DNA from: Candidatus Latescibacterota bacterium
GTDB lineage: Bacteria; Latescibacterota; UBA2968; UBA8231
DNA length: 64,000 nucleotides
Direction of reading: 5' to 3'
Assembly (NCBI GenBank): GCA_965204725.1
Contig: OZ242005.1
Coordinates: 4,512,001-4,576,000 of the forward strand
The position numbers were made by a program, and so were the translations under genes. This document shows, in pieces, positions 21,799-47,385 of this stretch. Position 1 is the first letter of the stretch. Each line of letters opens with the position of its first letter. Below the pieces are notes generated by a model. That model was given only the letters and a program-made list of their open reading frames with translations, had not been told where the DNA came from and did not search any database.

Positions 21799-21803
21799 TT
21801 CTG

Positions 21804-25373: not shown

Positions 25374-25435
25374 TCGCCCGCCACCTCGTCAACGCCGAAC
25401 GCATCTGCCTCAAGGGATTGGCCGACGCCGACTAG
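25370..25435 (+). pseudogene. probable 5' remnant of HEPN/HepT-like toxin
   Basis: ATGA-coupled 21-codon ORF MIARHLVNAERICLKGLADAD* with AAGGAG RBS, at the position where the HEPN partner normally starts. Confidence 0.45.
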
Positions 25436-25446
25436 CCCCTCGTCCA

Positions 25447-26817: not shown

Positions 26818-26836
26818 CCCAGAGCGATTGGCAGCC

Positions 26837-28084
26837 ATGGCAAAAATCCTGATCGTATCCATCGACTGCTGGCGCTACGACGCCCTGAGCCGGACGAACC
26901 CGCGCTTTAATACGCCCAAATTCGACTTGCTGACGCGGGATTACGCCTTTGCCGAGCGCTACTTTGTCACCGCGCCGGCGACTCGTCCTTCGCACACCTC
27001 GCTGTTTACCGGGCTGTATCCTTTTGAGCACGGGCTTTTTGGGCAGACCTACCTCAAGATGTTCGCTGGCGTGGTCAACCTGTTCGACGTTTTTGCCGCG
27101 GCCGGGTACAGCGTGCGGGGGTTTTCCGAACGGCCGGACGTCTTCCGCTTCCTCGACTTCGCGCCTTTTATCGGGCCGGTTGATCCACGAGCCACCCAGC
27201 AGCACTTGGGGTCGCTCGAACGCCTGTGCGCCGAGCTGATCGAGCCGAGTGGGCCGCAGTTTAAGTTCCTCCACTTTTGGTACACGCACGGCGGCTACGG
27301 CTTGGGCGGCATACCCCATCCGCCCGATTTGCGGCAGTTGGTGGCCGCCGGGCAGGTGGGCGAAGCCCTGCGCTACTACGAAGCGGCTGTGACCCACGTG
27401 CTGGAGTTTTCCCTCGTCGAGCTAGTCAAGCGAATCGACCTCGACGAGTGGGCGGTCTTTATCTGCGGCGATCACGGCGAGGGATTTTGTGGGGAGGTTA
27501 TGGCGCACGGCGACCGGCTGCATCCCAACGTGGTTCACGTGCCCATGCTGGCGCACGTGCCGGGCGGGTTCTCCTTTCCGTGCGACCGAGCGATTTCCGC
27601 CATCGATCTGTTTCCAACCATCGCGGCGTTGGCCGACCTGCCGGTTGACTACCGGGGATTTGGGCAGAACTGGCTGGAGCCGAGCGCGGCGTCAGCCGAG
27701 CGTTGGGTCCTATCTGAGCTAGACAGCCTGTACGGGGTGGGCTTTCTCAACCCGGCCAATCTGCGCCTGCCCGAGGAGCGCGTCACTGCGCCTACGGCTA
27801 TCAACGGGGAGGAAATAGCGCGCTGTGCCGAGGGCATCCGCGAGTGGTGCCTGTGCGATGGACGGCATTTCTACCGCGAGAACGAACAGACGGGCGAATA
27901 TGTCCTGCGCGACCTGCGCCACGGCGACGACAACTTGGCTTGCGCGGAACCATCGTCCTATCGCGCGCAATACCGCGCCCTGCGGGAGCACTCCTCGTAT
28001 CAACAGATGCCGGCGCAAGGGGCGGTCGCTGGCGAGGCCGAGCTCCTCAAAGAGCGCCTGCGCGCCCTCGGGTATCTAGATTGA
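26837..28084 (+). CDS. sulfatase-like alkaline phosphatase superfamily hydrolase (Thr at the nucleophile position)
   Basis: SIDCWRYD, TRPSHTSLFTGLYP.EHG, GDHGE, C-terminal RLRALGYL. Confidence 0.85.
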   Translation: MAKILIVSIDCWRYDALSRTNPRFNTPKFDLLTRDYAFAERYFVTAPATRPSHTSLFTGLYPFEHGLFGQTYLKMFAGVVNLFDVFAAAGYSVRGFSERPDVFRFLDFAPFIGPVDPRATQQHLGSLERLCAELIEPSGPQFKFLHFWYTHGGYGLGGIPHPPDLRQLVAAGQVGEALRYYEAAVTHVLEFSLVELVKRIDLDEWAVFICGDHGEGFCGEVMAHGDRLHPNVVHVPMLAHVPGGFSFPCDRAISAIDLFPTIAALADLPVDYRGFGQNWLEPSAASAERWVLSELDSLYGVGFLNPANLRLPEERVTAPTAINGEEIARCAEGIREWCLCDGRHFYRENEQTGEYVLRDLRHGDDNLACAEPSSYRAQYRALREHSSYQQMPAQGAVAGEAELLKERLRALGYLD

Positions 28085-29163
28085 CTGCCGCGGCTCACCT
28101 ATTCGTCTGGTTGCTCGTCTTGGCCGGGTGCGGCGAGGATCCGAGCGTGGATAGCACCCCAAGCGGCGACTGTGCCGGCAACATTCTGCCGGGCAACCAC
28201 ATCGTGCGCTCGCGCGGAGATGCGGACGCGCTGGAGAAGGAGGGCCGATGCAATTACACCATTGCCGGCGACCTCGAAATTACGCGCCTAAACCTCGCTC
28301 TTTTTGAGGGCTTGAACCAGCTCAGCACCGTGGATGGCAACCTCACTATCCACGACAACGACGAACTCAAAAACTTTGAGGGACTAAACGACCTCGCCTC
28401 CGTGGGGGGAGACGTCGCCATCTACGACAACGGCGAACTCGTCAACCTCAAGGGGCTATCCTTCCTCCACACAATCGGCGGGCACTTTAGCGTCTCCCAC
28501 AACGACAAGCTGGTCGCCGTAGATGGCCTCATCAAACTCAATGCCGTCGCCGGCGACGTCCGCATCGACAACAACAACCAACTGGCCGATGTCAACGGCC
28601 TGTTCGGCCTCACCGCGGTCGGCGGCAGCTTCACCATTGCGTTCAACCCCTCGCTCGCGCTCGTAGAAGACCTCTCGAATCTCAGCAGCGTGGGCGGCGA
28701 CCTCGTCGTCGAGGACAACGGGGCCCTCACCGCGCTGGAGGACATATCGGCCCTAAAGGAGATTGGCGGCAGCTTGCGGATTGGACGCAACGCCGCGTTG
28801 GACCTCGTCGAGGACGTATCGAGCCTAACGCACATCGGCCAAGACCTGAGCGTGCATAGCAACCCGCGGCTGACGAGCATCGCCGGGCTGGCCCAGCTCA
28901 GCCGGGTTGGCCGGGACCTCAACCTCTACAACAACGAAAAACTGACCTCTTTGACGGGATTGGAAAGCCTTGAGCAGGTTGGCCGGGACCTCAATCTCTA
29001 CGACAACGAAAAACTGACGAGTCTCGCCGGGCTGGCCCAGCTCGTCGGCATTGGGCGCAACGTGCTCATCGTCGAAAACGGCAACGTCCCTACGAGCGAG
29101 GCCCAAGCCTTGGCCGATCGGGCCGCGACGGGCGAGGTGTCCATCGCCAACAACGCGGATTAA
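28081..29163 (+). CDS. receptor L-domain / LRR-like repeat lipoprotein
   Basis: Lipobox LVLAGC; about 11-12 repeats of 24 aa (LxxLxxVGGDLxIxxNxxL); TTGA overlap with the upstream gene. Confidence 0.85.
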   Translation: MTAAAHLFVWLLVLAGCGEDPSVDSTPSGDCAGNILPGNHIVRSRGDADALEKEGRCNYTIAGDLEITRLNLALFEGLNQLSTVDGNLTIHDNDELKNFEGLNDLASVGGDVAIYDNGELVNLKGLSFLHTIGGHFSVSHNDKLVAVDGLIKLNAVAGDVRIDNNNQLADVNGLFGLTAVGGSFTIAFNPSLALVEDLSNLSSVGGDLVVEDNGALTALEDISALKEIGGSLRIGRNAALDLVEDVSSLTHIGQDLSVHSNPRLTSIAGLAQLSRVGRDLNLYNNEKLTSLTGLESLEQVGRDLNLYDNEKLTSLAGLAQLVGIGRNVLIVENGNVPTSEAQALADRAATGEVSIANNAD

Positions 29164-29906
29164 GCCATCCCAGTAATAACTTGCTCCACCTCGGCAACGG
29201 TCGTCTCCTTGGGATCGATGTCGTCGGCGACGACGCGGCCTTGGCGCAGCACCACGATCCGGTCCACAACCTCAAAGACGTGGTGGATGTTGTGCGCGAT
29301 GAAAATGCAGGAGTGGCCCGAATCGCGGGCGTTGCGGACGAAGTGCAAGACGCCTTGGGTCTCGGCGACTCCTAGGTTGTTGGTCGGCTCGTCGAGAATG
29401 ATTAGCTCGCTATCGAAGTGCATGGCCCGCGCAATGGCCACGGATTGACGCTCGCCGCCCGACAACGCACCGATGGGCGTCGTGGGGGGAATGTCCTTTT
29501 CAATGCCCACCTGCTTGAGCAAGGCACGGGCCACATTGGCCATGGCGTCTTGGTCCATGCGCCCTAAAAACCTCGGGCCTTTTAGGGGTTCGCGGCCCAA
29601 GAAAAAATTCCGCGCAATGGACAATTCCGCTACGAGGGCGGAGTCTTGGTAGATGGTTTCAATGCCGTAGCTAATGGCGTCGGCCGTGCTCTTTATGTCG
29701 GCTCGCGCACCGCGAATGAAGATGGCGCCGCTGCTGGCGGGGACGGCCCCGGAGAGAATTTTGATCAGCGTGGATTTACCGGCTCCATTGTCGCCGAGCA
29801 AGCCGACGATCTCGCGCTCGTTGACCGTCAGGTGGACGTTTTCGAGGGCATGCACCCGGCCGTAGGACTTGCTGATGTTTTTCATCTGGACTAGTGCCGC
29901 TGTCAT
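29160..29906 (-). CDS. sugar ABC transporter ATP-binding protein (single NBD)
   Basis: GDNGAGKS, LSGGERQ, IILDEPT. Confidence 0.93.
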   Translation of the reverse strand: MTAALVQMKNISKSYGRVHALENVHLTVNEREIVGLLGDNGAGKSTLIKILSGAVPASSGAIFIRGARADIKSTADAISYGIETIYQDSALVAELSIARNFFLGREPLKGPRFLGRMDQDAMANVARALLKQVGIEKDIPPTTPIGALSGGERQSVAIARAMHFDSELIILDEPTNNLGVAETQGVLHFVRNARDSGHSCIFIAHNIHHVFEVVDRIVVLRQGRVVADDIDPKETTVAEVEQVITGMA

Positions 29907-29909
29907 CGG

Positions 29910-32183
29910 CTAGTCTCCCTTGATGAAGTCGGCGATGGCGCGAATTTCCGCTTGAGTGAGGTCCAACGACTCCTTGGATGTGCCCGGGGCAAACTGCTTG
30001 GGATCGGCGAGAAACCGTTCCAAGTCGGCTGGCGTCCACACCATGTCTAGCGAGCGGAGCGCGTCTGAGAACAGGTAGCCGTTGACCGCACCCACACGCC
30101 GCCCAAGCACCCCGACGAGGTGCGGACCCATGCCGTGTTTCTCGGCATTCAGGCTGTGACAACCGCTGCAATATGCGTCGTATAGCTGAGCACCGGTCGC
30201 CGCGACCGTACCCACCGTATCCTCGCAGTCGATCGCATAGACGTTGCGGTTCCACTTCGATTCATCGGCGCAGTGGGCGTAGGATCGGCTCAGGAAATGG
30301 ACCCATCCCTCATCGACCAACAGCGCGAGACGTCGATCCGGCATTTGCGCGAGATCCCGGATCCGAGAGCCTACTTCAATGCGCTCGACGTATTGCACGT
30401 CCGTGCCGTCGCGCCGAACTCGAAAGAGCGCGTAGCCGCTCCCCTGTGTACCGGAAAGCGAACCGATCAGCAGATCGTCTCTCCACAGCGGGAACAGGTG
30501 CTCGTCATTGACGATGACGCTGGAGATGCCGATGGACGGCACCCAAGCGAAAACGGGCTTGATGAAGCCATCGTGTAGCCCCACCGCTTCGGCACGGGAC
30601 ATTCGGGACACATTGACCGTGCTTCCATACCCGACGCCATAGGAGACCTGCGGCCAACCGTAATTGCCGCCTGCTACCAGCACGTTGAGTTCACCGCCGC
30701 CTTGCGGTCCGTGCTCGGTTTCCCACAAGTGGCCGGCCGCATCCCGGATCAGCCCTTGCGGATTGCGAAGGCCGAACGCCAGCGTCTCCGCCCGGCCGGT
30801 CTTGATTTCAACGCGGACGAGCTTGCCCAAGTGTGAGGCCGGGTCTTGAGCATACTCACCTTGACCATGATCGCCAGTTACGACCAGCAAGTGGTCGGGC
30901 CCGTCCGTCAACATCCGGCCGCCCGCGTGGTCTCCTCCTCCCGTGGCGTCTGCGGTTGGTAGGCAGGGTTCGGCGTCGAATACCGTTCTCCACTCCGGCG
31001 ACACTGAAACGTCCGCGCCTTGTTGCAAAAGCGTCGTCGCGGACAACCGGAACCGCAGGCACTCGCCAGTGAAGTAGTGATGCGTCACAAACAGTTCATA
31101 CCGCCCGGCCGAATGCCGTTTCAACAAAATGTCGGCCACTCGAAACCGGTCCGAGCGGAAATTTGCTTGGTCCGGGTGCGCGAGGAGTTCGGCCTTGTTC
31201 ATCGGCACGTTCCCCTCTAGATACGCCACCTCCCCGGTTGGCCGCACCAGCGCGAACCGCCCGTGCGGCGTGGCCACGAGCAAGTCGTTGCCCAACGGTG
31301 CGATAGCCCCACCCCAAGCGCGATCCCAGCGGAGCCGGACCCACAACGATTGCAGATCATACAGGTGCGTCGTGAGCATCTCAGGGTGGGGGCGTGGAGC
31401 AGGGGGCGGGCTACCGCATCCCGGCGTCGTGGACGCCTCGGCCGCGACGACGCCCAACACCGCTGTCGCGGAGTACGACACGCCACCTTGGTCATAGTCC
31501 ACCTGCACCGACAAGCACTTCCCTTGCAGTTCGGGCTCCATGAAGTACTGATAAGACGGTCCACCTCCACGCTTGGGCAATACCTTGCAATCAGACCCGT
31601 CCGCGTTGCACATAAACCAATGCCACGGCGACCGACGTACAAATGGATATAGGCTTTCCATGCTAACTTTTGCGAATTTTCCCATCAGGGGCTGGTCGCT
31701 GCTAATCGTGGCGGCTGAGGACGCTTGGAGCACAGGGGCTGTTATCGGAACCGGGAACGACCACTCAGAGGACCTCGCGGTGTTGACTGCGGCCACCCGA
31801 ACCTCGTACTGCATCCCGCTCATCGCCCACATATTCGCGATGGTATAGGGCGAGGAGGGTGCAGGGTATTCGCGCCATGCAGGGACGAGTTGGTTTTTCG
31901 GCCGGACGGCGATCTTGTAACTCGTCGCGCCGGGAATTTCGCGCCAAGAGATCGTAAGGCGTCGGTTGGCAGCACTCACGGCAACGTCGGTGGGCGTACC
32001 GAGGGCTTCCACCTTGTCGGGAGTTCTTTTGACGTACATGTAGCCAGCGGCAGCCAACAGCATGAGCAAAAGAGCAAGCAGCGAAATTCGGGAGCGAATT
32101 TTTCGGGGGTGGGTGGGTGGTAACTCATTGTTTTTCAATGACTTATGAAAACAATCTAAAATTATTGCTCCAAATAGGTCCAT
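29910..32183 (-). CDS. array unit U5: anchor + FN3 + Ig-like + PQQ-dependent sugar dehydrogenase propeller + cytochrome c
   Basis: FN3 (LTISW...SYKI...YEVRVAAVN...SEWS); GSDH motifs HAGGR, GLRNPQG, EHGPQGGGELN, NYGWP, RIRD; haem motif CSGCH, GPHLVGV.GR. Confidence 0.9.
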   Translation of the reverse strand: MDLFGAIILDCFHKSLKNNELPPTHPRKIRSRISLLALLLMLLAAAGYMYVKRTPDKVEALGTPTDVAVSAANRRLTISWREIPGATSYKIAVRPKNQLVPAWREYPAPSSPYTIANMWAMSGMQYEVRVAAVNTARSSEWSFPVPITAPVLQASSAATISSDQPLMGKFAKVSMESLYPFVRRSPWHWFMCNADGSDCKVLPKRGGGPSYQYFMEPELQGKCLSVQVDYDQGGVSYSATAVLGVVAAEASTTPGCGSPPPAPRPHPEMLTTHLYDLQSLWVRLRWDRAWGGAIAPLGNDLLVATPHGRFALVRPTGEVAYLEGNVPMNKAELLAHPDQANFRSDRFRVADILLKRHSAGRYELFVTHHYFTGECLRFRLSATTLLQQGADVSVSPEWRTVFDAEPCLPTADATGGGDHAGGRMLTDGPDHLLVVTGDHGQGEYAQDPASHLGKLVRVEIKTGRAETLAFGLRNPQGLIRDAAGHLWETEHGPQGGGELNVLVAGGNYGWPQVSYGVGYGSTVNVSRMSRAEAVGLHDGFIKPVFAWVPSIGISSVIVNDEHLFPLWRDDLLIGSLSGTQGSGYALFRVRRDGTDVQYVERIEVGSRIRDLAQMPDRRLALLVDEGWVHFLSRSYAHCADESKWNRNVYAIDCEDTVGTVAATGAQLYDAYCSGCHSLNAEKHGMGPHLVGVLGRRVGAVNGYLFSDALRSLDMVWTPADLERFLADPKQFAPGTSKESLDLTQAEIRAIADFIKGD

Positions 32184-32228
32184 GCGTACGTCCTAACGGA
32201 TTATAGAAAAATCAAATCGTCGTAGGAA
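32121..32228 (-). promoter_or_regulatory. AT-rich junction block, copy 1: putative promoter, RBS and 25-bp palindrome
   Basis: Minus strand TTCCTA-17-TATAAT, then AGGA-7nt-ATG(32183); palindrome TAACTCATTG-TTTTT-CAATGACTTA at 32121-32145. Confidence 0.55.
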
Positions 32229-34040
32229 ATGGACCCGTCCCCCATCGACCAACAGCGCGATCCGGCGATCCGGCATTTGCGCGAGATCCCGGATCCGGTT
32301 GCCCACCTTAATGCGCTCGACGTATTGCACGTCCGGGCTGTCGCGCCGGACTCGATAGAGCGCGTGGCCGCCAAGCGAGCCGATCAGCAGATCGTCTTTC
32401 CACAGCGGGAACCAGCGCTCGTCATTGACGATGACGCTGGAGATGCCGATGGACGGAACCCACGCGAAAACGGGCTTGATGAAGCCATCGTGTAGCCCCA
32501 CCGCTTCGGCTTGGGACACGTTGACCGTGCTTCTATACTCAACGCCATAGGAAACCTGCGGCCAACCGTAATTGCCGCCTGCGACCAGCAGGTTGAGTTC
32601 ATCGCCGCCTTGCGGTCCGTGCTCGGTTTCCCACAAGTGGCCGGCCGCGTCCCGGGTCAGCCCCTGCGGATTGCGAAGGCCACGGGCCAGTACCTCTGTA
32701 TGGCCGGTCTCGATTTCGACGCGGACGAGCTTGCCCAAGTGCGAGGCCGGATCTTGAGCATACTCACCTTGCCTGTGATCTCCAATTACGACCAACAAGT
32801 GGTCGGATCCATCCGTCAACATCCGGCCGCCCGCTTGCTCGGATGCGGTACGCACACACGGATCCGCATCCAATATCGTTCTCCATTCCGGCGAGACTGA
32901 AACGTCCGCGCCTTGTTGCAAAAGCGTCGTCGAGGACAACCGGAACCGCATACACGCCCCGGTGAAATAGTGATGCGTCACAAACAGTTCATACCGCCCG
33001 GCCGAACGCCGTTTCAACAAAATGTCGGCCACTCGAAATTCGTCCAAGAGGAAATTTTCTTGGTCCGGGTGCGCGAGGAGTTCGGCCTTATTCATCGGCA
33101 CGTTCCCTTCGAGATACGCCACCTCCCCAGTTGAGCGCACCAGCGCGAGCCGTCCGTGCGGCGTTGCCACGAGCAAGTCGTTGCCCAACGGTGCGATGGC
33201 CCCACCCCGGGCGCGATCCCAGCGGAGCCAGACCCACGACAATTGCAGATCATACAAGTGCGTCGTCAGCGTCCGGCCGGCACCGACGATGCCTAACACC
33301 GCTGTCGCGGAGTATGACACACCCTCTTTGTCGTAGTCAACCTGAACCGACAGGCGCTTCCCTTCCATTGAGGCCTCCATGAAATACTTGTAAGACGGTA
33401 GAGCGTGATACCTCGGCAATACCTTGCGATCAGACCCGTCCGCGCTGGAAATAAACCAGTGCCACGGCAACCTGTTTTCAAGTGGATACTGGCCGACCAA
33501 GCGAACGGCTATGGGTTGTCCCACCACCGGGGACGAGGAGCTGCCAATCGCATTGGCTGGAGCCGCTTGCAGCACGGGGGCTGTTATCGAAACCGGGGCC
33601 GACCACTCGGATTGCCCACGGGCGTTGACCGCGGCCACCCGAACCTCGTACTGCATCCCGCTCATCGCCCACCTCTTGATGGTATAGGGCGAGGAGGGCG
33701 ACGTGTACTCGCGCCACTCGAAGGGGACGAGTCCGTTTTTTGGTCTGACAACGATCTTGTAACTCTCCGCGCCGGGAATTGCGTCCCAAGCGACGGTAAG
33801 GCGTCGGTTGGCAGCACCAACGGCGACTTCGGTGGGCGTACCGAGCACAGGTGATTCAATGCGACGCGCTTCCACCTTGTCGGGGGTTCTTTTGACGTAC
33901 ATGCAGCCAGCGGCAGCCAACAGCATGAGCAAAAGAGCAAGCAGCGAAATTCGGGAGCGAATTTTTCGGGGAGGGAGTAATCCATTTCTTTTCAACAACT
34001 TATGAAAACAATCTAAAATTATTGCTCCAAAGAGGTCCAT
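32193..34040 (-). CDS. array unit U4: FN3 + Ig-like + PQQ propeller, no cytochrome c
   Basis: Same motifs as U5; lipobox-like LAAAGC; QAGGR; ends FLRRFDFSIIR*. Confidence 0.88.
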   Translation of the reverse strand: MDLFGAIILDCFHKLLKRNGLLPPRKIRSRISLLALLLMLLAAAGCMYVKRTPDKVEARRIESPVLGTPTEVAVGAANRRLTVAWDAIPGAESYKIVVRPKNGLVPFEWREYTSPSSPYTIKRWAMSGMQYEVRVAAVNARGQSEWSAPVSITAPVLQAAPANAIGSSSSPVVGQPIAVRLVGQYPLENRLPWHWFISSADGSDRKVLPRYHALPSYKYFMEASMEGKRLSVQVDYDKEGVSYSATAVLGIVGAGRTLTTHLYDLQLSWVWLRWDRARGGAIAPLGNDLLVATPHGRLALVRSTGEVAYLEGNVPMNKAELLAHPDQENFLLDEFRVADILLKRRSAGRYELFVTHHYFTGACMRFRLSSTTLLQQGADVSVSPEWRTILDADPCVRTASEQAGGRMLTDGSDHLLVVIGDHRQGEYAQDPASHLGKLVRVEIETGHTEVLARGLRNPQGLTRDAAGHLWETEHGPQGGDELNLLVAGGNYGWPQVSYGVEYRSTVNVSQAEAVGLHDGFIKPVFAWVPSIGISSVIVNDERWFPLWKDDLLIGSLGGHALYRVRRDSPDVQYVERIKVGNRIRDLAQMPDRRIALLVDGGRVHFLRRFDFSIIR

Positions 34041-34085
34041 GCGTACGTCCTAACGGATTATAGAAAAATCAAATCGTCGTAGGAA
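33978..34085 (-). promoter_or_regulatory. AT-rich junction block, copy 2
   Basis: 33998-34104 matches 32141-32247 with one mismatch seen; degenerate palindrome TAATCCATTTCTTTTCAACAACTTA at 33978-34002. Confidence 0.55.
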
Positions 34086-35849
34086 ATGGACCCGTCCCCC
34101 ATCGGCCAACAGCGCGAGACGGCTATCCGGCATTTGCGCGAGATCCCGGATTCGGTTGCCCACCTCAATGCGCTCGACGTACTGCACGTCCGTGCCGTTG
34201 CGCCGAACTCGAAAGAGCGCGTGGCCGCTCCCCTGTGTACCGGAAAGCGAACCGATTAGCAGGTCGTCTCTCCACAGCGGGAACAGGTGCTCGTCATTGA
34301 CGATGACGCTGGAGATGCCGATGGACGGAACCCACGCGAAAACGGGCTTTGTGAAGCCATCGTGTAGCCCCACCTCTGCGGCGCGGGGCACGTTGACCTT
34401 GCTTCCATACTCAACGCCATACGTAACCCGAGGCCAACCGTAGTTGCCGCCCGCTACCAGCACGTTGAGTTCATCGCCGCCCTCTGGTCCGTGTTCGGTT
34501 TCCCACAAGTGGCCGGCCGCGTCCCGGGTTAGCCCTTGCGGATTGCGAAGGCCGCGGGCCAGTAACGCTGTGTGGCCGGTCTCGATTTCGACGCGGATGA
34601 GCTTACCCAAGTGCGAGGCCGGGTCTTGAGCGTACTTATTTTGACTGTGAGTTCCGATTACGACCAACAAGTGGTCGGGGCCATCCGTCAACATCCGGCC
34701 GCCCGCTTGGAGTGATGGGGAACGTACGCACGGCTGTGCATCAAATATCGTTCTCCATTCCGGCGACACCGAAACGTCCGCGCCTTGTTGCAAAAGCGTC
34801 GTCGCGGACAACCGGAACCGGAAGCACTCGCCGGTGAAATAGTAATGTGTTGCGAACAGTTCATACCGCCCGGCCGAATGCCGTTTCAGCAAAATGTCGG
34901 CCACTCGAAACCTTCTTTTGCCCAGATGCACGTTGAGTTCCGCTTGATTCATCGGCACGTTTCCCTCGAGATACGCCACCTCCCCGGTTGGACGCACCAG
35001 TGCGAGCCGCCCCCACGGCGTTGCCACGAGCAAGTCGTTGCCCAACGGCGCGATGGCACCACCACCACGTGCGCCATCCCAGCGAAGCCAAGCCCACGCC
35101 GATTCCAAATCGTACAAGTGCGTCGTCAGCACCCGGGCGGCCCCGACGACGCCCAACGCCGCGGTCGCAGAATACGACACCCCCTCTTTGTCATAGTCAA
35201 CCTGAACCGATAGGTGCTTCCCTTGCATGGCCGGCTCCATGAAATAGTGCTCAGACTCCCAGAAATAGTGCTCAGACTCCCAAAGTTGACGCCACGGTAA
35301 TACCTTGCGATCCAACCCGTCCGCGCTAAAAATAAACCAATGCCACCGCGACTGGTTCGCAAATGGACGCTGGCTGTGCAAGTCAACGGCTACGACTTCT
35401 CCCACCAACGGGGGCGAGAAGTCGCTGATCGCGTCGGCTGGGGCCGCTTGCAGCACGGGGGCTGTTATCGAGACCGGGGCGGACCACTCGGATTGCCCAC
35501 GGGCGTTGACCGCGGCTACTCGCACCTCATACTCCATCCCGCTCATCGCCCACATATTCGCGATGGAATAGGGCGAGGAGGGCGTCATGTATTCGTGCCA
35601 TGTGGGGACGAGTTCGTTTTTCAGTCTGACGGCGATCTTGTAACTCGTCGCGCCGGGCATTTCGCGCCAAGCGACGGTAAATCGTCTGTTGGAAGCACCA
35701 ACAGCGACTCCGGTGGGCGCACCGGGGGCTTCCACCTTGTCGGGGGGGCTATTGGCAGCGGATGCCAACAGCATGAGCAAGAGAGCAAACACCGAGACTC
35801 GGAAGCGAATTTTTCGTGTCGCCGCGACTATGGCCCCCCCTCCTTGCAA
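34050..35849 (-). CDS. array unit U3: FN3 + Ig-like + PQQ propeller, no cytochrome c
   Basis: Same motifs; weak TTG start overlapping the end of U2; ends FLRRFDFSIIR*. Confidence 0.85.
   Translation of the reverse strand: MQGGGAIVAATRKIRFRVSVFALLLMLLASAANSPPDKVEAPGAPTGVAVGASNRRFTVAWREMPGATSYKIAVRLKNELVPTWHEYMTPSSPYSIANMWAMSGMEYEVRVAAVNARGQSEWSAPVSITAPVLQAAPADAISDFSPPLVGEVVAVDLHSQRPFANQSRWHWFIFSADGLDRKVLPWRQLWESEHYFWESEHYFMEPAMQGKHLSVQVDYDKEGVSYSATAALGVVGAARVLTTHLYDLESAWAWLRWDGARGGGAIAPLGNDLLVATPWGRLALVRPTGEVAYLEGNVPMNQAELNVHLGKRRFRVADILLKRHSAGRYELFATHYYFTGECFRFRLSATTLLQQGADVSVSPEWRTIFDAQPCVRSPSLQAGGRMLTDGPDHLLVVIGTHSQNKYAQDPASHLGKLIRVEIETGHTALLARGLRNPQGLTRDAAGHLWETEHGPEGGDELNVLVAGGNYGWPRVTYGVEYGSKVNVPRAAEVGLHDGFTKPVFAWVPSIGISSVIVNDEHLFPLWRDDLLIGSLSGTQGSGHALFRVRRNGTDVQYVERIEVGNRIRDLAQMPDSRLALLADGGRVHFLRRFDFSIIR
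35241..35282. repeat. perfect 21-bp tandem duplication in U3 (WESEHYF x2)
   Basis: GAAATAGTGCTCAGACTCCCA twice. Confidence 0.95.
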
Positions 35850-37642
35850 TCAACCGCATAGACGCTTTCCCCTAACTCATCGTCGCAGTTGGCGTATCGG
35901 CTCAGGAAATGGACCCGTCCTCCATCAACCAACAGCGCGAGACGGCTATCCGGCATTTGCGTGAGATCCCGGATTCGGTTGCCCACCTCAATGCGCTCGA
36001 CGTATTGCACGTCCGTGCCGTCGCGTCGGACTCGAAAGAGCGCGTAGCCGATCCCCTGTGTACCTGAGAGCGAACCGATCAGCAGATCGTCTTTCCACAG
36101 CGGGAACCAGCGCTCGTCATTGACGATGATGCTGGAGATGCCGATGGACGGAACCCACGCGAAAACGGGCTTGATGAAGCCATCGTGTAGCCCCACCTCT
36201 GCGGCGCGGGGCACGTTGACCCGGCTTTCATACTCAACGCCGTACGTAACCTGCGGCCAACCGTAGTTGCCGCCTGCTACCAGCACGTTGAGTTCATCGC
36301 CGCCTTCTGGCCCGTGCTCTGTTTCCCACAAGTGGCCGGCCGCGTCCCGGATTAGCCCCTGCGGATTGCGAAGGCCCAAGGCCAGCGTCTCCGCCCGGCC
36401 GGTCTCGATTTCGACGCGGATGAGCTTGCCCAAGTGCGAGGCCGGGTCTTGAGCGTACTTATTTTGATTGTGAGTTCCAATTACGACCAACAAGTGGTCG
36501 GGGCCGTCCATCAACATCCGGCCGCCCGCTTGGATTAGATTGGCTGCGGCACTCAGGCACGGCTCCGCATTCAATATCGTTCGCCATTCCGGCGAGACTG
36601 AAACGTCCGCGCCTTGTTGCAAAAGCGTCGTCGCGGACAATCGGAACCGCATGCACTCGCCAGTTAAATAGTGATGCGTCACAAACAGTTCATACCGCCC
36701 AGCCGAATGCCGTTTCAGCAAAATGTCGGCCACTCGGAACCTTCTTCTGTCCGGGTGCGCGGGGAGTTCCGCTTGATTCATCGGCACGTTTCCCTCCAGA
36801 TACGCCACCTCCCCGGTTGGCCGCACCAGCGCGAACCGCCCATGCGGCGTGGCCACGAGCAAGTCGTCGCCCAACGGCGCGATGGCTCCACCCCAAGCGC
36901 GATCCCAGCGGAGCCAAGCCCACGACGATTGCAGATCGTACAAATGCGTCGTCAGCACCCGGGCGGCCCCGACGACGCCCAACGCCGCGGTCGCAGAATA
37001 CGACACCCCCTCTTTGTCATAGTCAACCTGAACCGACAGGTGCTTCCCTTGCATGGCCGGCTCCATGAAACAGTGCCGAGACTCCGAAGGCTGACGCCAC
37101 GGCAATACCTTGCGGTCCAACCCGTCCGCACTACAAATCAACCAATGCCACTTCGACCGGTTCGCAAATGGACGTTGGCTGTGCAAGTCAACGGCTACGA
37201 CTTCTCCCACTACCGGGGGCGAGAAGGTGCGAACCGCATCGGCCGGGGCCGCTTGCAACGCGGGGGCTGTCATCGAGACCGGGGCCGACCACTCGGATTG
37301 CCCACGGGCGTTGACCGCAGCTACCCGCACCTCATATTCCATCCCGCTCATCGCCCACATATTCGCGATGGTATAAGGCGAGGAGGGGGTCATGTATTCG
37401 CGCCATGCGGGGACGAGTTCGTTTTTCAGTCTGATGGCGATCTTGTAACTCGCCGCGCCGGGCATTTCGCGCCAAGCGACGGTAAATCGTCTGTTGGAAG
37501 CACTCATGGCGACGCCGGTGGGCGCACCGAGGGCTTCCACCTTGTCGGAGGGGCTGTTAGCAGCGGACGCCAACAGCATGAGCAAGAGAGCAAGCGTCGA
37601 AGTTCGGGAGCGAATTCTTCGGGGGAGTTGAATGCCTGTCAC
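35828..37642 (-). CDS. array unit U2: FN3 + Ig-like + PQQ propeller, no cytochrome c
   Basis: Same motifs; GTG start; ends in the linker (YAVDCKEGGP*) at a G7 tract. Confidence 0.86.
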   Translation of the reverse strand: MTGIQLPRRIRSRTSTLALLLMLLASAANSPSDKVEALGAPTGVAMSASNRRFTVAWREMPGAASYKIAIRLKNELVPAWREYMTPSSPYTIANMWAMSGMEYEVRVAAVNARGQSEWSAPVSMTAPALQAAPADAVRTFSPPVVGEVVAVDLHSQRPFANRSKWHWLICSADGLDRKVLPWRQPSESRHCFMEPAMQGKHLSVQVDYDKEGVSYSATAALGVVGAARVLTTHLYDLQSSWAWLRWDRAWGGAIAPLGDDLLVATPHGRFALVRPTGEVAYLEGNVPMNQAELPAHPDRRRFRVADILLKRHSAGRYELFVTHHYLTGECMRFRLSATTLLQQGADVSVSPEWRTILNAEPCLSAAANLIQAGGRMLMDGPDHLLVVIGTHNQNKYAQDPASHLGKLIRVEIETGRAETLALGLRNPQGLIRDAAGHLWETEHGPEGGDELNVLVAGGNYGWPQVTYGVEYESRVNVPRAAEVGLHDGFIKPVFAWVPSIGISSIIVNDERWFPLWKDDLLIGSLSGTQGIGYALFRVRRDGTDVQYVERIEVGNRIRDLTQMPDSRLALLVDGGRVHFLSRYANCDDELGESVYAVDCKEGGP

Positions 37643-37711
37643 CGTGGCGGTCCCGACCGTATCCGGTATCGTCGCGCTGGCATGGTCCTCGCAGTTGGTC
37701 GCATAGAGGCT

Positions 37712-39520
37712 TCAGTCCCACTTCGCCTCATCGGCGCAGTGGTCGTAGGATCGGCTCAGTAAATAGACCAACCCCCTATCGAGCAATAGTGCAAGACGTC
37801 GATCCGGCATTTGCGCGAGATCCCGGATCCGACAGCCCAGATACCACAATGGACAGCCTACTCCAATGCGCTCGACGTATTGCACGTCCGTGCCATCGCG
37901 ACGAACTCGAAAGAGCGCGTGGCCGCTCCCCTGTGTACCTGCAAGCGAACCGATCAGCAGGTCGTCTCTCCACAGCGGGAACCAGCGCTCGTCATTGACG
38001 ATGAGGCTGGAAATGCCGATGGACGGAACCCAAGCGAAAACGGGCTTTGTGAAGCCGTCGTGTAGCCCCACCTGTTCGGCTTGGGACACATTAACTCGGC
38101 TTCCATAACCGACGCCATAGGAGACCCGAGGCCAACCGTAATTGCCGCCTGCGACCAGCACGTTGAGTTCGTCGCCGCCTTGCGGTCCGTGATCGGTTCC
38201 CCACAAGTGGCCGGCCGCGTCCCGGGCGAGCCCCTGCGAATTGCGGAGGCCAGAGGCCAGCACCTCCGCCCGGCCGGTCGCGATTTCAACGCGGACGAGC
38301 TTGCCCAAGTGCGAGGCCGGGTCTTGAGCGGCCTCATTTACCAGATGCGGTCCCGGTACGACCAACAAGTGGTCGGGGCCGTCCGTCAACATCCGGCCCC
38401 CCGCTTGGACGGACGCGGTTTTCAGGCACGGCTCCGCATCATATATCGTTCTCCATTTCGGCGACACCGAAACGTCTGCGCCTCGGTGCCGAAGCGTCGT
38501 CGCGGACAACCGGAACCGCAGGCACTCGCTGGTGAAATGGTGATGCGCCACAAACAGTTCATACCGCCCGGCCGAACGCCGTTTCAACAAAATGTCGGTC
38601 ACTTGGAACCGGTTCAAGGATATTGTCTTTGTCGGGTGGGCGAGGAGTCCGGCCTTATTCATCGGCACATTCCCTTTGAGCGGCACCACCTCCCCGGTGG
38701 TCGGGCGTATCAGATTGAACCGCCCCCACGGCGTTACGACGAGCAAGTCGTTGCCCAACGGCGCGATGGCACCGCCGCGCACGTAGGTATTGGCCATGTG
38801 ATCCCATCGGTCTCGGAGCCAGATCCACACCGTTTGCAGATCATACAAGTGCGTCGTCAGCACCCCGGCGGCTTCGACGATGCCCAACTCCGCCGTCGCA
38901 GAGTACGACACCCCCTCTTTGTCGTAGTCAACCTGAACCGACAGGTGCTTCCCTTCCATGGAGGGATCCATGAAATACTCCCAAGTCGGTCGCGATTGAC
39001 GCCTCGGCAATACCTTGGGGTCAGACCCATCCGCGCAGGAAATAAACCAATGCCACGGCGACCTATTCTCAAATGGACGCTGGCTGTTCACGCCAACGGC
39101 TATGGGTTCTCCCATCAACGAGGACGAGGGGATGCGAATCGCATCGGCCGGAGCTGCTTGCAGCACGGGGGCTGTTATCGAGACCGGGGCTGACCACTCG
39201 GAGTGCCCACGGGCGTTGACCGCGACCACTCGCACCTCGTACTCCATCCCGCTCATCGCCCACATACTCTCGATGGTATCGGGCGCGGAGGTCGCCGTGT
39301 GTTCGCGCCATGCAGGGACAAGTTCGTTTTTCGGTCTGACGGCGATCGTGTAACTCGTCGCGTCGGGGACTTCGCCCCAAGCGACGGTAAGGCGTCTGTT
39401 GGCAGCAGTAACGGCGACTTCGGTGGGCGTATCGAGGGTTTCCACCATGTCGAGGGTGCTTTTGACGTACATGCAGCCAGCGGGTGCCAACAGCATGAGC
39501 AAGAGAGCAAGTGCCGGCAC
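37712..39520 (-). CDS. array unit U1: FN3 + Ig-like + PQQ propeller, no cytochrome c
   Basis: Same motifs; lipobox-like LAPAGC; GTG start 3 nt after the permease stop; ends HCADEAKWD*. Confidence 0.87.
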   Translation of the reverse strand: MPALALLLMLLAPAGCMYVKSTLDMVETLDTPTEVAVTAANRRLTVAWGEVPDATSYTIAVRPKNELVPAWREHTATSAPDTIESMWAMSGMEYEVRVVAVNARGHSEWSAPVSITAPVLQAAPADAIRIPSSSLMGEPIAVGVNSQRPFENRSPWHWFISCADGSDPKVLPRRQSRPTWEYFMDPSMEGKHLSVQVDYDKEGVSYSATAELGIVEAAGVLTTHLYDLQTVWIWLRDRWDHMANTYVRGGAIAPLGNDLLVVTPWGRFNLIRPTTGEVVPLKGNVPMNKAGLLAHPTKTISLNRFQVTDILLKRRSAGRYELFVAHHHFTSECLRFRLSATTLRHRGADVSVSPKWRTIYDAEPCLKTASVQAGGRMLTDGPDHLLVVPGPHLVNEAAQDPASHLGKLVRVEIATGRAEVLASGLRNSQGLARDAAGHLWGTDHGPQGGDELNVLVAGGNYGWPRVSYGVGYGSRVNVSQAEQVGLHDGFTKPVFAWVPSIGISSLIVNDERWFPLWRDDLLIGSLAGTQGSGHALFRVRRDGTDVQYVERIGVGCPLWYLGCRIRDLAQMPDRRLALLLDRGLVYLLSRSYDHCADEAKWD

Positions 39521-39523
39521 CCG

Positions 39524-40504
39524 CTAGCGCCTCTCCTGCTGACGGCGGTCCACCCACGAATGCAGGGCCATCATTCCCAAGATGATCGCGCCGATGAAAA
39601 TGTTGTACGCCAGCCCGGGGACGCCGATGAGCACGATGCCGTTGCGCATCAGGCGCAGGATGAACACGCCGAGCACCGTGCCGACGATGGTGCCGCGCCC
39701 CCCCGTTAGGGCTGTCCCCCCAATCACCACCATGGCGATGACCTCTAGCTCGTACCCCGTGCCGCTGTTGGGATTGGCCGCGGCCGTGCGTATGGAACTG
39801 ATGATGCCGGCGAAACCCGCCATGACGGCCGAGAGAACAAACAGCTTGACCTTGGTGCGCTCTACGCGCACGCCGCGGGCGCGGGCGGCCTCGGCGTTGC
39901 CGCCTGCGGCTTGGAGCCAGTTCCCCATCTTGGTCTGCGTCAGCAAATAGCCGAGCAACAGCGCCGCCGCCACAAACCAAAACAGCGACATGTACACGCG
40001 CAGGCCAGCCACCTCAAAACTCCCGACCAGCACCTCGGCGAGGAAGAGATCGGCGGCGTCCCAAGTCCGCTGCGGAAACCCGCTCGTCACCACCAGCGCA
40101 CTGCCCCGCACCACCAGCAACATGCCGAGCGTCACCAGAAACGAGGGAATCCGCAAGCGCGTGACGAACAAACCGCTGCACAGGCCGAGGGCCGCAGCCG
40201 TGCCCAAGGCGAGGACAAAGCCGACCTCAATGGACGTAGCCTCGGTGTTGTACAGGGTCCACATGAGCACTGGGCAGAACCCGAACAGCGAGCCGACCGA
40301 AAGGTCGAATTCGCCAGCCGTCATCAGCAGGGTCATGGCCAGCGCGATCAGCCCCAACTCCACTGTGAAGGCCAGCATGTTGCCGATGTTGCGCGCCGAT
40401 AGAAACGCCGGATTGATCTGCCAGAAGACGAAAATCATGGCGACCAGCAGGACAAACGGGCCGAATTCGGGGCGCGACAGGATGCGCTGTACGGCTGCGT
40501 TCAT
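39524..40504 (-). CDS. sugar ABC transporter permease (RbsC-like)
   Basis: GEFDLSVGS, IPSFLVTLG, GGNAEAARARGV, YELEVIAMVVIGGTALTGGRG. Confidence 0.93.
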   Translation of the reverse strand: MNAAVQRILSRPEFGPFVLLVAMIFVFWQINPAFLSARNIGNMLAFTVELGLIALAMTLLMTAGEFDLSVGSLFGFCPVLMWTLYNTEATSIEVGFVLALGTAAALGLCSGLFVTRLRIPSFLVTLGMLLVVRGSALVVTSGFPQRTWDAADLFLAEVLVGSFEVAGLRVYMSLFWFVAAALLLGYLLTQTKMGNWLQAAGGNAEAARARGVRVERTKVKLFVLSAVMAGFAGIISSIRTAAANPNSGTGYELEVIAMVVIGGTALTGGRGTIVGTVLGVFILRLMRNGIVLIGVPGLAYNIFIGAIILGMMALHSWVDRRQQERR

Positions 40505-41440
40505 CTATTCGCCCGACAGAATGTCGTCGTATAGCTGGGCCTTGTCGGCCTCGTAGAGCACGCCGGTGATCACGTCAAACCCCGCGGGGATGCCGCTGGC
40601 TGCCATGGCCGCCAACGACAGGGCCACGTAGCTGGTCGCGTGCGGGTCTTGCCACTGGGCGGCATTCACGTATCCGGCGAGCACCTCTCGGGTCGTGTCG
40701 AGGGAATTGCCCCAGCCGACGACCGGAATTTCTCCGGGCGCGATCCCGCACTGGTCGAACACGCGCTTGATGCTGCCGGTTACCAAGTCGCCGAGGCCGA
40801 TGATCGCGTCGATGTTGTCGATGTTGGCCGTCATATAGTCCACCATGCGGGCGATGGCTTCGGCTTGGTCGAGGGTCGCGTCGGTGACTTCCCAAGCAAT
40901 GCCCAACGGCTCAAAGACGCTGGCAACGCCCTGCTCCTCTTGGACGCCATAGGTCGCGCCCGGCACTTCTACCGGCAGCCAGACGAAGTCGCCGGATTGG
41001 ACCAAGCCCTTGTCAACCAAGTACTGCGCCCACTGCCGCCCAATCCCGACTAGGTCGCCGCCCACATAAGCGTCAAAACTAGCGGTGGGATCGGGCGTGT
41101 TCATGTTGATGATGGGTATGTTGGCTTCGTTGGCCTCTTTCGCCACCTCTACCAAACTGCCCGGGTCTGGGCTGCTGGTGACGATGCCATCGGCCCCGGT
41201 GGCAATAGCGGCGCGCACGGCCTCCTGATGAGAAGCCACGTCGCCGTTGTGGAAGGACGTGTTGACCTTGTGGCCGGTATCCTCTTGCCACTGACGGGCA
41301 CCGGCGAGAAAGTAGGTCCACACCGGATCGGCGGGCGAGCCGTGCGAAATCCAGTAAAAGGTCTTGGCCTCAGCCAACGCCGGGCTCAGAGCCAACAGCA
41401 CACTGGCAAACGCGACAATCCTCATCTTAAACATCGGCAT
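40505..41440 (-). CDS. sugar ABC transporter substrate-binding protein
   Basis: Signal peptide ending ALA-EA; periplasmic binding protein type I features; GGAGAGG RBS. Confidence 0.88.
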   Translation of the reverse strand: MPMFKMRIVAFASVLLALSPALAEAKTFYWISHGSPADPVWTYFLAGARQWQEDTGHKVNTSFHNGDVASHQEAVRAAIATGADGIVTSSPDPGSLVEVAKEANEANIPIINMNTPDPTASFDAYVGGDLVGIGRQWAQYLVDKGLVQSGDFVWLPVEVPGATYGVQEEQGVASVFEPLGIAWEVTDATLDQAEAIARMVDYMTANIDNIDAIIGLGDLVTGSIKRVFDQCGIAPGEIPVVGWGNSLDTTREVLAGYVNAAQWQDPHATSYVALSLAAMAASGIPAGFDVITGVLYEADKAQLYDDILSGE

Positions 41441-41459
41441 TCCTCTCCATGTAATTAGT

Positions 41460-42341
41460 TCAGCGGCCAATCTCAAGGGACTCCACCTGCACCAACAGCG
41501 TCTCGCGTTCCTCGGTACTTATGGCTCGCAACGGACGCCGAGGGTCGCCGCACTCCATCCCTATGCGCTGACTGACCACCGCCAAGACGCTGCCGAAATA
41601 GCCGAATTGCGCCACCGTGCTGTGAAAGGCATTGGCCCGTTGCTGGGCCGCTTGGGCCGCGGCCAGATCGCCCGCTTGGTAGGCATTCCATAAGGCCATC
41701 CACAGCTCCGGAGCCGCGCACAAAGGGCCATCGACCGACCCGACGGCTCCGACGGTCATGGCGGGCAACATCAGCTTGCCGCTGCCGATAAAGGCGTCTA
41801 GCCCCATGCCGACGAATTCGAGCAGGTTGGCGAATATCGGCGACGAGTGTTTCAAACCAACTGTCTGGGGCACTTCCTCGACGAGACGCCGCATGAGGGC
41901 TGGGCTGACATCGAGGCCGGTGCAGCCGGGCAAATTGTAGATGAACAACGGCCGGTCCGCCGCCGCTCCCACGGCCCGATAGTATTCTACCACGCCGTCA
42001 TCGTCGCCTTGGTAGAAAAAGGGCGGCACCGCGCAGACAGCTTCCACTCCGGCTCGGGCTGCGTGAGCCGCCAGTTTTTCGGCCCGCGCCGTGGTATTGG
42101 CTCCCACGTGCATAATGACCTGAGTGCGCCCCGCGTTTTGGTCGGCGGCGATCTCGGCGATGCGCTGGTTCTCCTCGTCGTTGAGCAGGACGCTCTCGCC
42201 AGTGCCGCCAGCGACCCAAAAGCCGTGGACGCCGGCTCGTATATTGAACTCCATTGTGGCGCGGAAGGCTTGCTCGTTTAAGGTCCCATCCTCGTTTTTC
42301 GGGCTGATAATCGCCGGCACTACCCCGTGAAATTGCCCCAT
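41460..42341 (-). CDS. DHDPS/N-acetylneuraminate lyase family aldolase
   Basis: GGTGE, VPPFFY, IYNLP, Schiff-base GLKHS. Confidence 0.9.
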   Translation of the reverse strand: MGQFHGVVPAIISPKNEDGTLNEQAFRATMEFNIRAGVHGFWVAGGTGESVLLNDEENQRIAEIAADQNAGRTQVIMHVGANTTARAEKLAAHAARAGVEAVCAVPPFFYQGDDDGVVEYYRAVGAAADRPLFIYNLPGCTGLDVSPALMRRLVEEVPQTVGLKHSSPIFANLLEFVGMGLDAFIGSGKLMLPAMTVGAVGSVDGPLCAAPELWMALWNAYQAGDLAAAQAAQQRANAFHSTVAQFGYFGSVLAVVSQRIGMECGDPRRPLRAISTEERETLLVQVESLEIGR

Positions 42342-44513: not shown

Positions 44514-44582
44514 CCTTGGTCGGTGTACTATAGCGGGTAGTACTTCAAGAGGAAGGCTAGGATGCCGGGGGGCGCGTGGGCT

Positions 44583-44648
44583 GTCACTCCTGCGAAAGCA
44601 GGAGTCCAGTCTCTCACCCCGCTGAATTCCGACTTTCGCCGGAATGAC
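44583..44648. repeat. REP-like palindrome family B, full element
   Basis: GTCACTCCTGCGAAAGCAGGAGTCCAG...CTGAATTCCGACTTTCGCCGGAATGAC inverted pair. Confidence 0.85.
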
Positions 44649-44676
44649 GGTGCAAAAGAGGCGAGCAACAGGCTCG

Positions 44677-44692
44677 GGGCATCTTGCCCTCG
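44677..44692. repeat. REP-like family A fragment (inverted)
   Basis: GGGCATCTTGCCCTCG is the reverse complement of CGAGGGCAAGATGCCC found in the 14.1 kb and 23.07 kb copies. Confidence 0.55.
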
Positions 44693-47360: not shown

Positions 47361-47385
47361 CGTTTCCTCCTTACAAGTGCCCGTG

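Follow-up and report, generated by a model that had tools for sequence, protein, structure and literature searches.

A tandem array of five FN3/Ig-like/GSDH-type propeller genes in a sponge-associated Candidatus Latescibacterota genome

The window analysed here is a stretch of 64,000 nucleotides (nt) from Candidatus Latescibacterota bacterium (assembly GCA_965204725.1, contig OZ242005.1, positions 4,512,001 to 4,576,000), located on the 5.38-Mb contig of a two-contig genome (5.43 Mb). The interval 29910-39520 of the window is filled by five minus-strand open reading frames (ORFs) of 599-757 codons, as had been reported in a first-pass annotation made from the sequence alone. Their order as transcribed is A5, A4, A3, A2, A1cyt. 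All five encode a fibronectin type III (FN3) domain, an immunoglobulin (Ig)-like domain and a propeller of the GSDH type, and differ sharply from each other in short loops. The origin of these differences, and the role that the five proteins may have, are the subject of this analysis.

Organization of the array and of the encoded proteins

The array includes the following features (aa, amino acids).

29910-32183, minus strand: A1cyt (U5 in the first-pass annotation), 757 aa, last gene of the array; predicted N-terminal hydrophobic export segment, FN3 (residues 63-146), Ig-like domain (150-248), six-bladed GSDH-type propeller (268-633), linker, class-I cytochrome c (about 655-757)
29913-30221, minus strand: cytochrome c domain of A1cyt, with CSGCH at residues 672-676
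30915-30968, minus strand: 2D-3A loop of A1cyt, PCLPTADATGGGDHAGGR, called "loop before GGR" in the first-pass annotation
31440-31736, minus strand: Ig-like middle domain of A1cyt, residues 150-248
32184-32243, minus strand: the 60 nt preceding the A1cyt start, which match those preceding the A2 start (34041-34100) at every position
32193-34040, minus strand: A2, 615 aa, FN3, Ig-like domain and propeller, no cytochrome c; short 2D-3A loop, RTASEQAGGR, with Glu at -5 and no His; possible lipobox AAGC at the N-terminus
34050-35849, minus strand: A3, 599 aa, no cytochrome c; TTG start uncertain
35828-37642, minus strand: A4, 604 aa, no cytochrome c; 2D-3A loop SAAANLIQAGGR
37712-39520, minus strand: A5, 602 aa, first gene of the array; GTG start 3 nt past the stop codon of an upstream permease gene

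Five such copies in a row are far more than expected by chance. At the DNA level the array repeats with a period of 1805-1932 nt and an identity of about 60-100%, and the translated copies, once aligned, are 74-80% identical to A1cyt. Intergenic gaps measure 3-69 nt, A4 and A3 being the overlapping pair: if the TTG start is right, the A3 start overlaps the A4 end by 22 nt, and the overlap contains an AAGGAGG motif. No internal stop or frameshift was found in any of the five copies, and the many indels are held in frame, as already remarked in the first-pass annotation; the four sets of loop strings quoted there occur letter for letter in the translations. A scan for promoters and terminators detected 8 promoter-like sites (4.0 expected) and 12 terminator-like sites (14.9 expected), none of them convincing within the array. 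The array is plausibly co-transcribed with the operon in which it lies.

Hydrophobic export segments, read by eye from the sequence, are found at the N-termini of the array copies. They end with a lipobox-like AGC in A2 and A5, and with an Ala-x-Ala-like site in A3 and A4, and the five proteins are accordingly predicted to be exported. A5 has a shortened N-terminus devoid of basic residues, and is also marked by two insertions, RD..HMANTYV and GCPLWYLGC.

Pfam matches to fn3 and GSDH were obtained with all five copies, to Cytochrom_C with A1cyt only. Scores were 149-179 bits for GSDH (PF07995) and 28.6-31.8 bits for fn3 (PF00041), the cut-off being 25 in both cases. No NCBIfam model was reached by the array copies; TIGR03606 scored 49-56 bits, the cut-off being 434. 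A1cyt was modelled with AlphaFold on the basis of 86 relatives (mean pLDDT 77.7); the model features the FN3 domain, a second beta-sandwich, a six-bladed propeller with pLDDT mostly >90 and a poorly modelled C-terminal helical domain. In Foldseek searches the propeller was matched to Escherichia coli YliI/Asd (2g8s; E 1.2e-20, TMt 0.78) and to soluble glucose dehydrogenase (sGDH, 1c9u; E 1.9e-15). Other sugar dehydrogenases dependent on pyrroloquinoline quinone (PQQ) were also retrieved, sGDH, fungal AA12 enzymes and HHIP being more distant. The layout read by the first-pass annotation is thus supported by Pfam, AlphaFold and Foldseek alike.

The Ig-like domain, modelled alone, reached a pLDDT of 91. 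Its best Foldseek match, the Ig domain of SCAB1, is weak (E 2e-3), and no known carbohydrate-binding module was found among the Foldseek matches. An Atlas search with the same domain gave a best score of 0.89, which is to be taken as a lead only. A conserved C-x-ADGSD-C cysteine pair is found in this domain in A1cyt and in three paralogues located elsewhere in the genome (B1, Ccyt and D, see below); one or both cysteines are lost in A2, A3, A4, A5 and in the paralogues B2cyt and B3.

Divergence, selection and recombination among the copies

Ten members of the family were identified in the genome: the five of the window, a second array of three (C1:3197752-3203756) consisting of B1, B2cyt and B3, of which the middle one has a cytochrome c domain, and two single genes, Ccyt, also with cytochrome c, and D, in which the last blade is frameshifted away. 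Cytochrome c is therefore present in 3 of the 10 copies. Copy D (G000:C1:2374815-2376887) is A5-like, and is the nearest paralogue of A5. Its frame is shifted just ahead of RIRD, and the rest of blade 6 is recognizable in another frame, with stops; D is likely a pseudogene. The second array adjoins a ketol-acid reductoisomerase-like gene, and its B1|B2 junction resembles the A4|A3 junction, overlapping start included.

In a tree of 111 rows (FastTree, local supports) the partner of every array copy is a protein of another metagenome, and not its neighbour in the array. The pairs are A1cyt-P0006 (97% identity, support 99), A2-P0052 (89%, 99), A3-P0087 (95%, 100), A4-P0073 (95%, 92) and A5-P0085 (support 89). 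Loops are identical between ortholog pairs in 12 of 20 comparisons, and most of the others are 1-2 residues apart; in a wider recount 18 of 32 were identical, one of the remaining 14 being a pattern miss. The loops are not hypervariable. The CDR-like (complementarity-determining region-like) behaviour attributed to them in the first-pass annotation is contradicted by orthologs that are 89-97% identical and share most loop alleles, an outcome which the annotation itself had listed as arguing against its proposal.

The four loops singled out in that annotation correspond to 6D-1A, 1D-2A, 2D-3A and 3B-3C. Being all D-to-A or B-to-C connections, they lie on the cofactor/substrate face by propeller topology, and their placement on the ligand face, as originally suggested, holds. 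Pairwise differences average 0.17 in strands, 0.39 in loops of this top face and 0.28 in bottom loops. The contrast between top and bottom loops is not significant in this strand-order mapping (permutation p 0.059), and does not support the proposed clustering of the variation on the ligand face. Top loops differ markedly from each other. The varying ones are 6D-1A (0.74), 2D-3A (0.60) and 1D-2A (0.41), while GLRN (0.00), HGPQGG (0.12) and the top loops of blades 5 and 6 (0.13-0.14) are nearly fixed. On the modelled fold, the pattern of the top face is that of a conserved cofactor pocket flanked by a drifting substrate side.

Ratios of nonsynonymous to synonymous substitutions (dN/dS, or omega) range from 0.34 to 0.62 in pairwise comparisons of the ten copies, at dS values of 0.19-0.48. 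In five phylogenetically independent sister pairs omega is 0.45 for the propeller and 0.58-0.77 for the variable loops, which are no different from the rest (Fisher p 0.11-0.38). A departure from the average of the gene is seen in two segments only, both in the Ig-like domain, 155-180 (omega 1.08, p 0.002) and 196-216 (omega 0.81, p 0.003), and the strongest excess of amino acid changes lies in the Ig-like domain, not in the propeller. In the same pairs no region, loops included, has an omega significantly >1; the dN/dS check indicated in the first-pass annotation therefore gives no sign of hypervariable loops. Sliding windows in which pN exceeds pS were considered as candidates for positive selection, and were discarded since none goes beyond neutrality in the five independent sister pairs.

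The copies are mosaic. Identities calculated by windows switch partners along the gene, and trees obtained from three segments disagree: A5 and D are sisters in the propeller (100/100) but not in FN3 plus Ig, and A1cyt groups with B1 in one half (93/92), with A2 in the other. The metagenome protein P0087 carries the 2D-3A loop of A4 on an A3-like backbone. The A3|A2 and A2|A1 junctions are identical, and the first 100 nt or so of A2 and A1cyt are 98% identical; together with the identical 60 nt upstream of both genes, this indicates a recent duplication of the junction, or conversion. Moreover, the two arrays of the genome share three kinds of C-terminal truncation. Partner switching, discordant trees, the shared loop, the junctions and the C-termini all point to unequal crossing-over and gene conversion, with occasional decay as in copy D.

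The 1D-2A loop of A5 differs from that of D and P0085 as two compensating indels would make it differ, and such indels are seen also in strain contigs. At 38616-38633 of the window, contigs from two metagenomic runs (X2 and X5) carry insertions of +2 and +1 nt, 16-17 nt apart, which turn the loop into one like HPDKDNILLNRF of D and P0085. The A5 allele HPTKTISLNRF looks like a compensated frameshift.

Catalytic position, cytochrome c and significance of the array

The YliI motif GNHFGGR is aligned by HMMER to GDHAGGR of A1cyt (sequence match E 1.8e-28), and the loop before GGR would consequently hold the position of the general-base histidine, a feature that had escaped the first-pass annotation together with the loss of this residue in four of the five copies. 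We take the histidine of the YliI motif to be equivalent to His144 of sGDH. A1cyt is the sole array copy with His at the catalytic position, and the sole one with a CxxCH motif. In A2-A5 Gln occupies the catalytic-His column and His is nowhere found in the 2D-3A loop; the A3 loop has neither His nor an acidic residue. According to the accessible part of a paper on AA12 enzymes (PMC6881810), His144 is the strongest candidate for the catalytic base of sGDH, and Arg228 and Asn229 flank PQQ.

His is found at -4 or -5 in 1 of the 10 copies of the genome, in 3 of 84 close homologues and in 19 of 35 distant ones. Since it is commoner in distant homologues, the long His-bearing loop looks ancestral and the short loop derived. 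His, Asp and Glu are all missing at -4/-5 in 55 of 67 copies lacking cytochrome c, against 25 of 63 having it (Fisher p 8e-7, a value overstated because the sequences are kin). The cofactor side is, by comparison, hardly changed. GLRN, equivalent to the Arg-Asn pair flanking PQQ, is invariant across the nine paralogues compared; N474, Q476, R609 and D610, which align to IRNPQG and RIRD of YliI, are invariant in 86 family members; and the motifs GLRNPQG, EHGPxGG(D/G)ELN and RIRD are nearly unchanged in the array, with one P>S substitution in A5. The array propellers may bind PQQ.

The cytochrome c domain of A1cyt (Cytochrom_C, E 1.4e-7; CSGCH at 672-676) is not present in A2-A5. Column 737, which follows PGT[SA], presumably corresponds to the position of the distal heme Met ligand, as in class-I cytochromes c. 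Its residue is Lys in A1cyt, as in 35 of 52 relatives with a cytochrome domain, and Met in the other 17, which suggests His/Lys ligation, or the use of another ligand.

Because only A1cyt keeps both the catalytic-position His and the cytochrome c domain, it is most likely the true quinohemoprotein dehydrogenase of the array, working on scavenged PQQ. A2-A5 are probably paralogues with altered chemistry, or non-redox binding proteins, under a purifying selection that is relaxed but real. We think it probable, on the whole, that the array consists of five old paralogues belonging to a recombining, lineage-specific birth-and-death family subject to gene conversion, of which one is a likely dehydrogenase (A1cyt) and four are altered. 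The course of events may be outlined as follows. A sponge-associated Candidatus Latescibacterota would have come to carry ten genes of this layout (signal or lipoprotein anchor, FN3, Ig-like domain, six-bladed propeller of the YliI/sGDH type and, in some of them, a C-terminal cytochrome c). The array would have grown by unequal crossing-over in the insertion-prone gap that separates permease from ATPase in a conserved sugar ATP-binding cassette (ABC) operon, while segments continued to be exchanged with paralogues by gene conversion. Divergence would have concentrated in the substrate-side top loops 6D-1A, 1D-2A and 2D-3A and in the Ig-like domain, and the four upstream copies would have kept the pocket and lost the base and the electron-transfer domain under relaxed purifying selection.

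Several points weigh against this interpretation. The proposed division between an enzyme and non-redox paralogues rests on one column and one domain. His is missing also in 41 cytochrome-bearing relatives, and, in the text available of PMC6881810, in more than 25% of fungal AA12 PQQ enzymes; loss of His, therefore, need not mean loss of activity. Lys is found at column 737 in all three cytochrome-bearing copies of the genome (A1cyt, B2cyt and Ccyt), and A1cyt is thus no textbook quinohemoprotein. A profile search of the genome gave no PF03070 match, so that pqqC was not found, and matches to the pqqE model TIGR02109 did not exceed 61 bits, the cut-off being 381; PQQ would accordingly have to be imported. 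As to selection, indel columns, to which much of the difference among loops belongs, do not enter the dN/dS tests, and a few sites under positive selection could go unnoticed behind values near 0.5 at low dS (0.19-0.48). Finally, top and bottom faces were assigned by the DSSP strand order of the AlphaFold model (four strands per blade, the N-terminal strand closing blade 6) and not by coordinates.

A first alternative is that the array is an adaptive repertoire, the duplicates being kept because diverged top loops and Ig-like domains recognize different host or seawater glycans, under positive selection and with shuffling of loops. Variation and in-frame indels do cluster in three substrate-side loops around an invariant cofactor site, loop alleles can move between backbones (A3/P0087), and the Ig-like segment 155-180 has a higher omega than the rest of the gene. 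The recurrence of family arrays in metagenome-assembled genomes (MAGs) titled Gammaproteobacteria and Dehalococcoidia, and the variation of copy number among species, would also fit. We nevertheless hold this explanation to be rather unlikely. No region has an omega significantly >1, the comparison of top and bottom loops does not reach significance, loop alleles are largely fixed between orthologs, all three copies of the gammaproteobacterial array have one same 2D-3A loop, and one paralogue, copy D, is likely a pseudogene already.

A bolder possibility is that the family consists of horizontally shared, symbiosis-specific surface receptors, derived from a quinohemoprotein sugar dehydrogenase. 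Redox parts (catalytic His, cytochrome c domain, heme Met ligand) would have been disabled in most copies, the PQQ-like pocket and the scaffold would have been retained, and substrate-side loops and Ig-like domain would act as recombining alleles of specificity for sponge or seawater glycans, each array including one enzyme and a set of pseudo-dehydrogenase binders. We regard this as speculative, and give it a small chance of being right.

The loss of His, of cytochrome c and of one or both Ig-domain cysteines might alternatively indicate that A2-A5 are decaying duplicates on their way to pseudogenes, with loop differences due to neutral drift. The relatively high dN/dS, the truncated N-terminus and odd insertions of A5 and the frameshift in D agree with such a view. 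It is improbable, given that each of the five genes maintains an open frame of about 1.8 kb, that omega lies well under 1 and that cofactor-side motifs are invariant. Furthermore, cytochrome-less forms with the same three kinds of C-terminal end are found again in the second array and among many metagenome proteins 560-660 aa long, and orthologs persist at 89-97% identity.

The first-pass annotation had also envisaged an expressed locus served by donor cassettes. Tandem, nearly identical scaffolds with local differences, and traces of segment exchange, are what programmed variation would leave, whether by silent cassettes or by a diversity-generating retroelement. We consider it very improbable in either form. 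All copies are full-length, lie 3-69 nt apart and have each a start and an export segment, and loop alleles do not change from one sample or study to another. A retroelement target was rejected, as no reverse transcriptase (RVT_1) match was found in the 5.43-Mb genome (matches were found in 3 of 14 control genomes), and differences between copies include many indels. Antigenic or phase variation of the cassette type was rejected in view of the five complete ORFs and of the recovery of the same copies at >=95% identity in runs from four studies, no search having been aimed at recombinases. The array reveals no new diversity-generating mechanism. Of the first-pass interpretation as a whole, layout, loop placement, in-frame indels and variation in copy number stand, while hypervariation and donor cassettes do not.

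The integrity of the array was evaluated by comparing contigs from four public runs of four studies to the interval 29800-39600, at >=95% identity. Two of the runs are labelled sponge metagenome, and the array of the window is carried by runs so labelled. The interval was covered in 30 of 30 bins in three runs, and in 24 of 30 in run X4. Among the pieces listed, beyond which there are 607 more, the A5|permease and A5|A4 junctions were bridged in all four runs, A4|A3 in three, A3|A2 in X4 only and A1|ATPase in X5 only; none of these pieces bridges A2|A1. The best-matching run may be the source sample, and would in that case lend no independent support. An odd joint (36531 to 30954, a step back of 5578) noticed in X1 and X4 was examined and proved to be no rearrangement, its 25 extra letters being the 2D-3A loop of the paralogue B1. 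Short-read contigs do fragment within the array, as they would if strain alleles of one gene had been joined in tandem by the assembler; yet unique junction sequences were recovered by runs from four different studies, independent contigs bridging most of the junctions, the copies differ by 20-26% in protein, well past strain variation, and analogous arrays lie at the same site in assemblies of other species, so that an assembly artefact, which the first-pass annotation had named as a possible refutation, is hardly credible.

Relatives, known systems and genomic context

Within the genus, the family was found at E 1e-100 or better in 4 of 31 genomes. Relatives at 47-60% identity were identified in MAGs titled Gammaproteobacteria, Pseudomonadales, Dehalococcoidia and Limisphaerales, those of Pseudomonadales and Limisphaerales being FN3-less. 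At a gammaproteobacterial locus (three full copies) and at a Dehalococcoidia locus (four), copies that have cytochrome c and copies that lack it stand together in tandem arrays. An all-against-all comparison of the flanks of 19 loci revealed no shared partner genes beyond close relatives. The FN3-Ig-propeller(-cytochrome c) architecture, of which tandem arrays are known from MAGs titled Latescibacterota, Gammaproteobacteria and Dehalococcoidia, is uncharacterised, and no description of it, or of its arrays, was found in the literature searched.

Array proteins share the fold and the motifs GLRNPQG, EHGPxGGDE and RIRD with YliI/Asd (2g8s) and PQQ six-bladed dehydrogenases (7cdy, 3a9g, 2ism, 3das; sGDH 1c9u). 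YliI/Asd is periplasmic or exported, as the array proteins are predicted to be; to our knowledge, E. coli lacks PQQ synthesis genes, and none were found in the present genome either. Array proteins differ from YliI/Asd, to which they are about 27% identical, for the N-terminal FN3 and Ig-like stalk, for the cytochrome c fused in some copies, for the shortened 2D-3A loop, for the absence of the catalytic-position His in 4 of 5 array copies and 9 of 10 in the genome, and for their occurrence as ten copies and in tandem arrays.

Quinohemoproteins and AA12 enzymes (bioRxiv 10.64898/2026.07.10.737718; PMC6881810, both as partial texts) similarly combine a PQQ-type six-bladed propeller with a heme domain or partner as likely electron acceptor, and the catalytic His is lost in a large minority of AA12 members according to the same portion of PMC6881810. 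In contrast, the cytochrome of the array family is fused at the C-terminus, occurs in only 3 of 10 copies and carries Lys at the column occupied by Met in 17 of 52 relatives. Neither FN3 fusions ("fibronectin" has 0 occurrences) nor tandem arrays are mentioned in the available text of the bioRxiv paper. Eukaryote-like proteins with FN3 and Ig domains are enriched in symbionts of sponges (PMC12993501; see also PMC3909097). FN3 and "PQQ" repeat proteins are listed among the eukaryote-like proteins of sponge-associated Latescibacterota (PMC12993501, partial text), and the array host is likewise a sponge-associated member of this group. That survey, as far as its available part goes, reports domain counts, and describes neither the FN3-Ig-GSDH-cytochrome c architecture nor arrays.

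HHIP (7pgm, 3ho4, 2wg3) belongs to the same propeller superfamily as the array proteins, though the match is much weaker (Foldseek E 1e-8 to 1e-10, about 10% identity), and is a precedent for the non-enzymatic, ligand-binding use of the GSDH fold. Array copies keep the PQQ-side motifs; HHIP, to the best of our knowledge, has none of them. Should our interpretation be correct, the array would offer a clear case from nature in which host-associated bacteria have amplified and remodelled a periplasmic quinoprotein scaffold, one copy having the full redox kit and its neighbours keeping the cofactor pocket without the catalytic base and the electron-transfer domain. It would raise the questions of whether the sGDH/YliI fold needs the His, and of whether this fold can serve in bacteria as a binding module, as it does in animal HHIP.

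The array is bordered by genes of one operon.

29160-29906, minus strand: ABC ATPase, sugar-type, single-domain; downstream border of the array
39524-40504, minus strand: ABC permease (BPD_transp_2); upstream border of the array
40505-41476, minus strand: periplasmic binding protein, upstream gene of the same operon
41460-42341, minus strand: DHDPS/NanA-family lyase, upstream gene of the same operon
42439-42411: promoter-like site

Of 30 genus relatives, 27 have a match to the permease at E<=1e-80, the identity being 92-96% in 20 and 80-82% in 4. In five relatives examined that lack the family the distance from permease to ATPase is 9, 335, 692, 783 and 800 nt. No remnants of the family were found by tblastn in these empty gaps (best E 0.04), and the longer ones carry small unrelated ORFs. 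The gap hosts five copies here, three in G046, one, with cytochrome c, in G007, fragments in G019, and none in the five relatives examined; a comparison of copy number across relatives, suggested in the first-pass annotation, thus gives 0, 1, 3 or 5 at this locus. Gap occupants of different species come from distinct family clades. The site of the array is an insertion-prone gap of an ABC operon that is conserved in other respects. Because gap occupancy varies among relatives and occupants belong to different clades, the operon context is physical but little informative on function. The array is embedded in a sugar-uptake operon, as originally noted, in that permease, ATPase and binding protein genes flank it, but it fills a variable gap, and the other five paralogues of the genome adjoin unrelated genes.

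Two small overlapping ORFs, of 70 and 148 aa, are found in one of the gaps (L064:2549-3140), and likewise in the gaps of L059, L060 and L061. The product of the longer one has a weak nucleotidyltransferase-like Pfam match (E 0.005, below cut-off). These ORFs may represent a toxin-antitoxin-like insert, marking the gap as a recurrent insertion spot. In G046 (L033:6575-7528 and 14145-14886) matches to permease and ATPase are split across frames, because of either real frameshifts or assembly indels.

Other genes of the window deserve mention. A convergent neighbour of the operon (27844-29163) contains 72-nt tandem repeats (28654-29080) and has a Pfam match to Recep_L_domain (leucine-rich-repeat-like). 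It comes after a sulfatase (26828-28084) and an FG-GAP/rhamnogalacturonan-lyase-like protein (25363-26817). A protein with an Mrr-type restriction endonuclease domain is encoded at 3997-5049, in a stretch of low GC content (0.52, compared with about 0.61); further low-GC stretches are located at 20001-22000 and 44001-46000. A 511-aa BamB-like propeller made of PQQ_2 repeats, unrelated to the GSDH family, is encoded at 47386-48921, next to PhyH-family dioxygenases (43677-44513 and 46491-47417).

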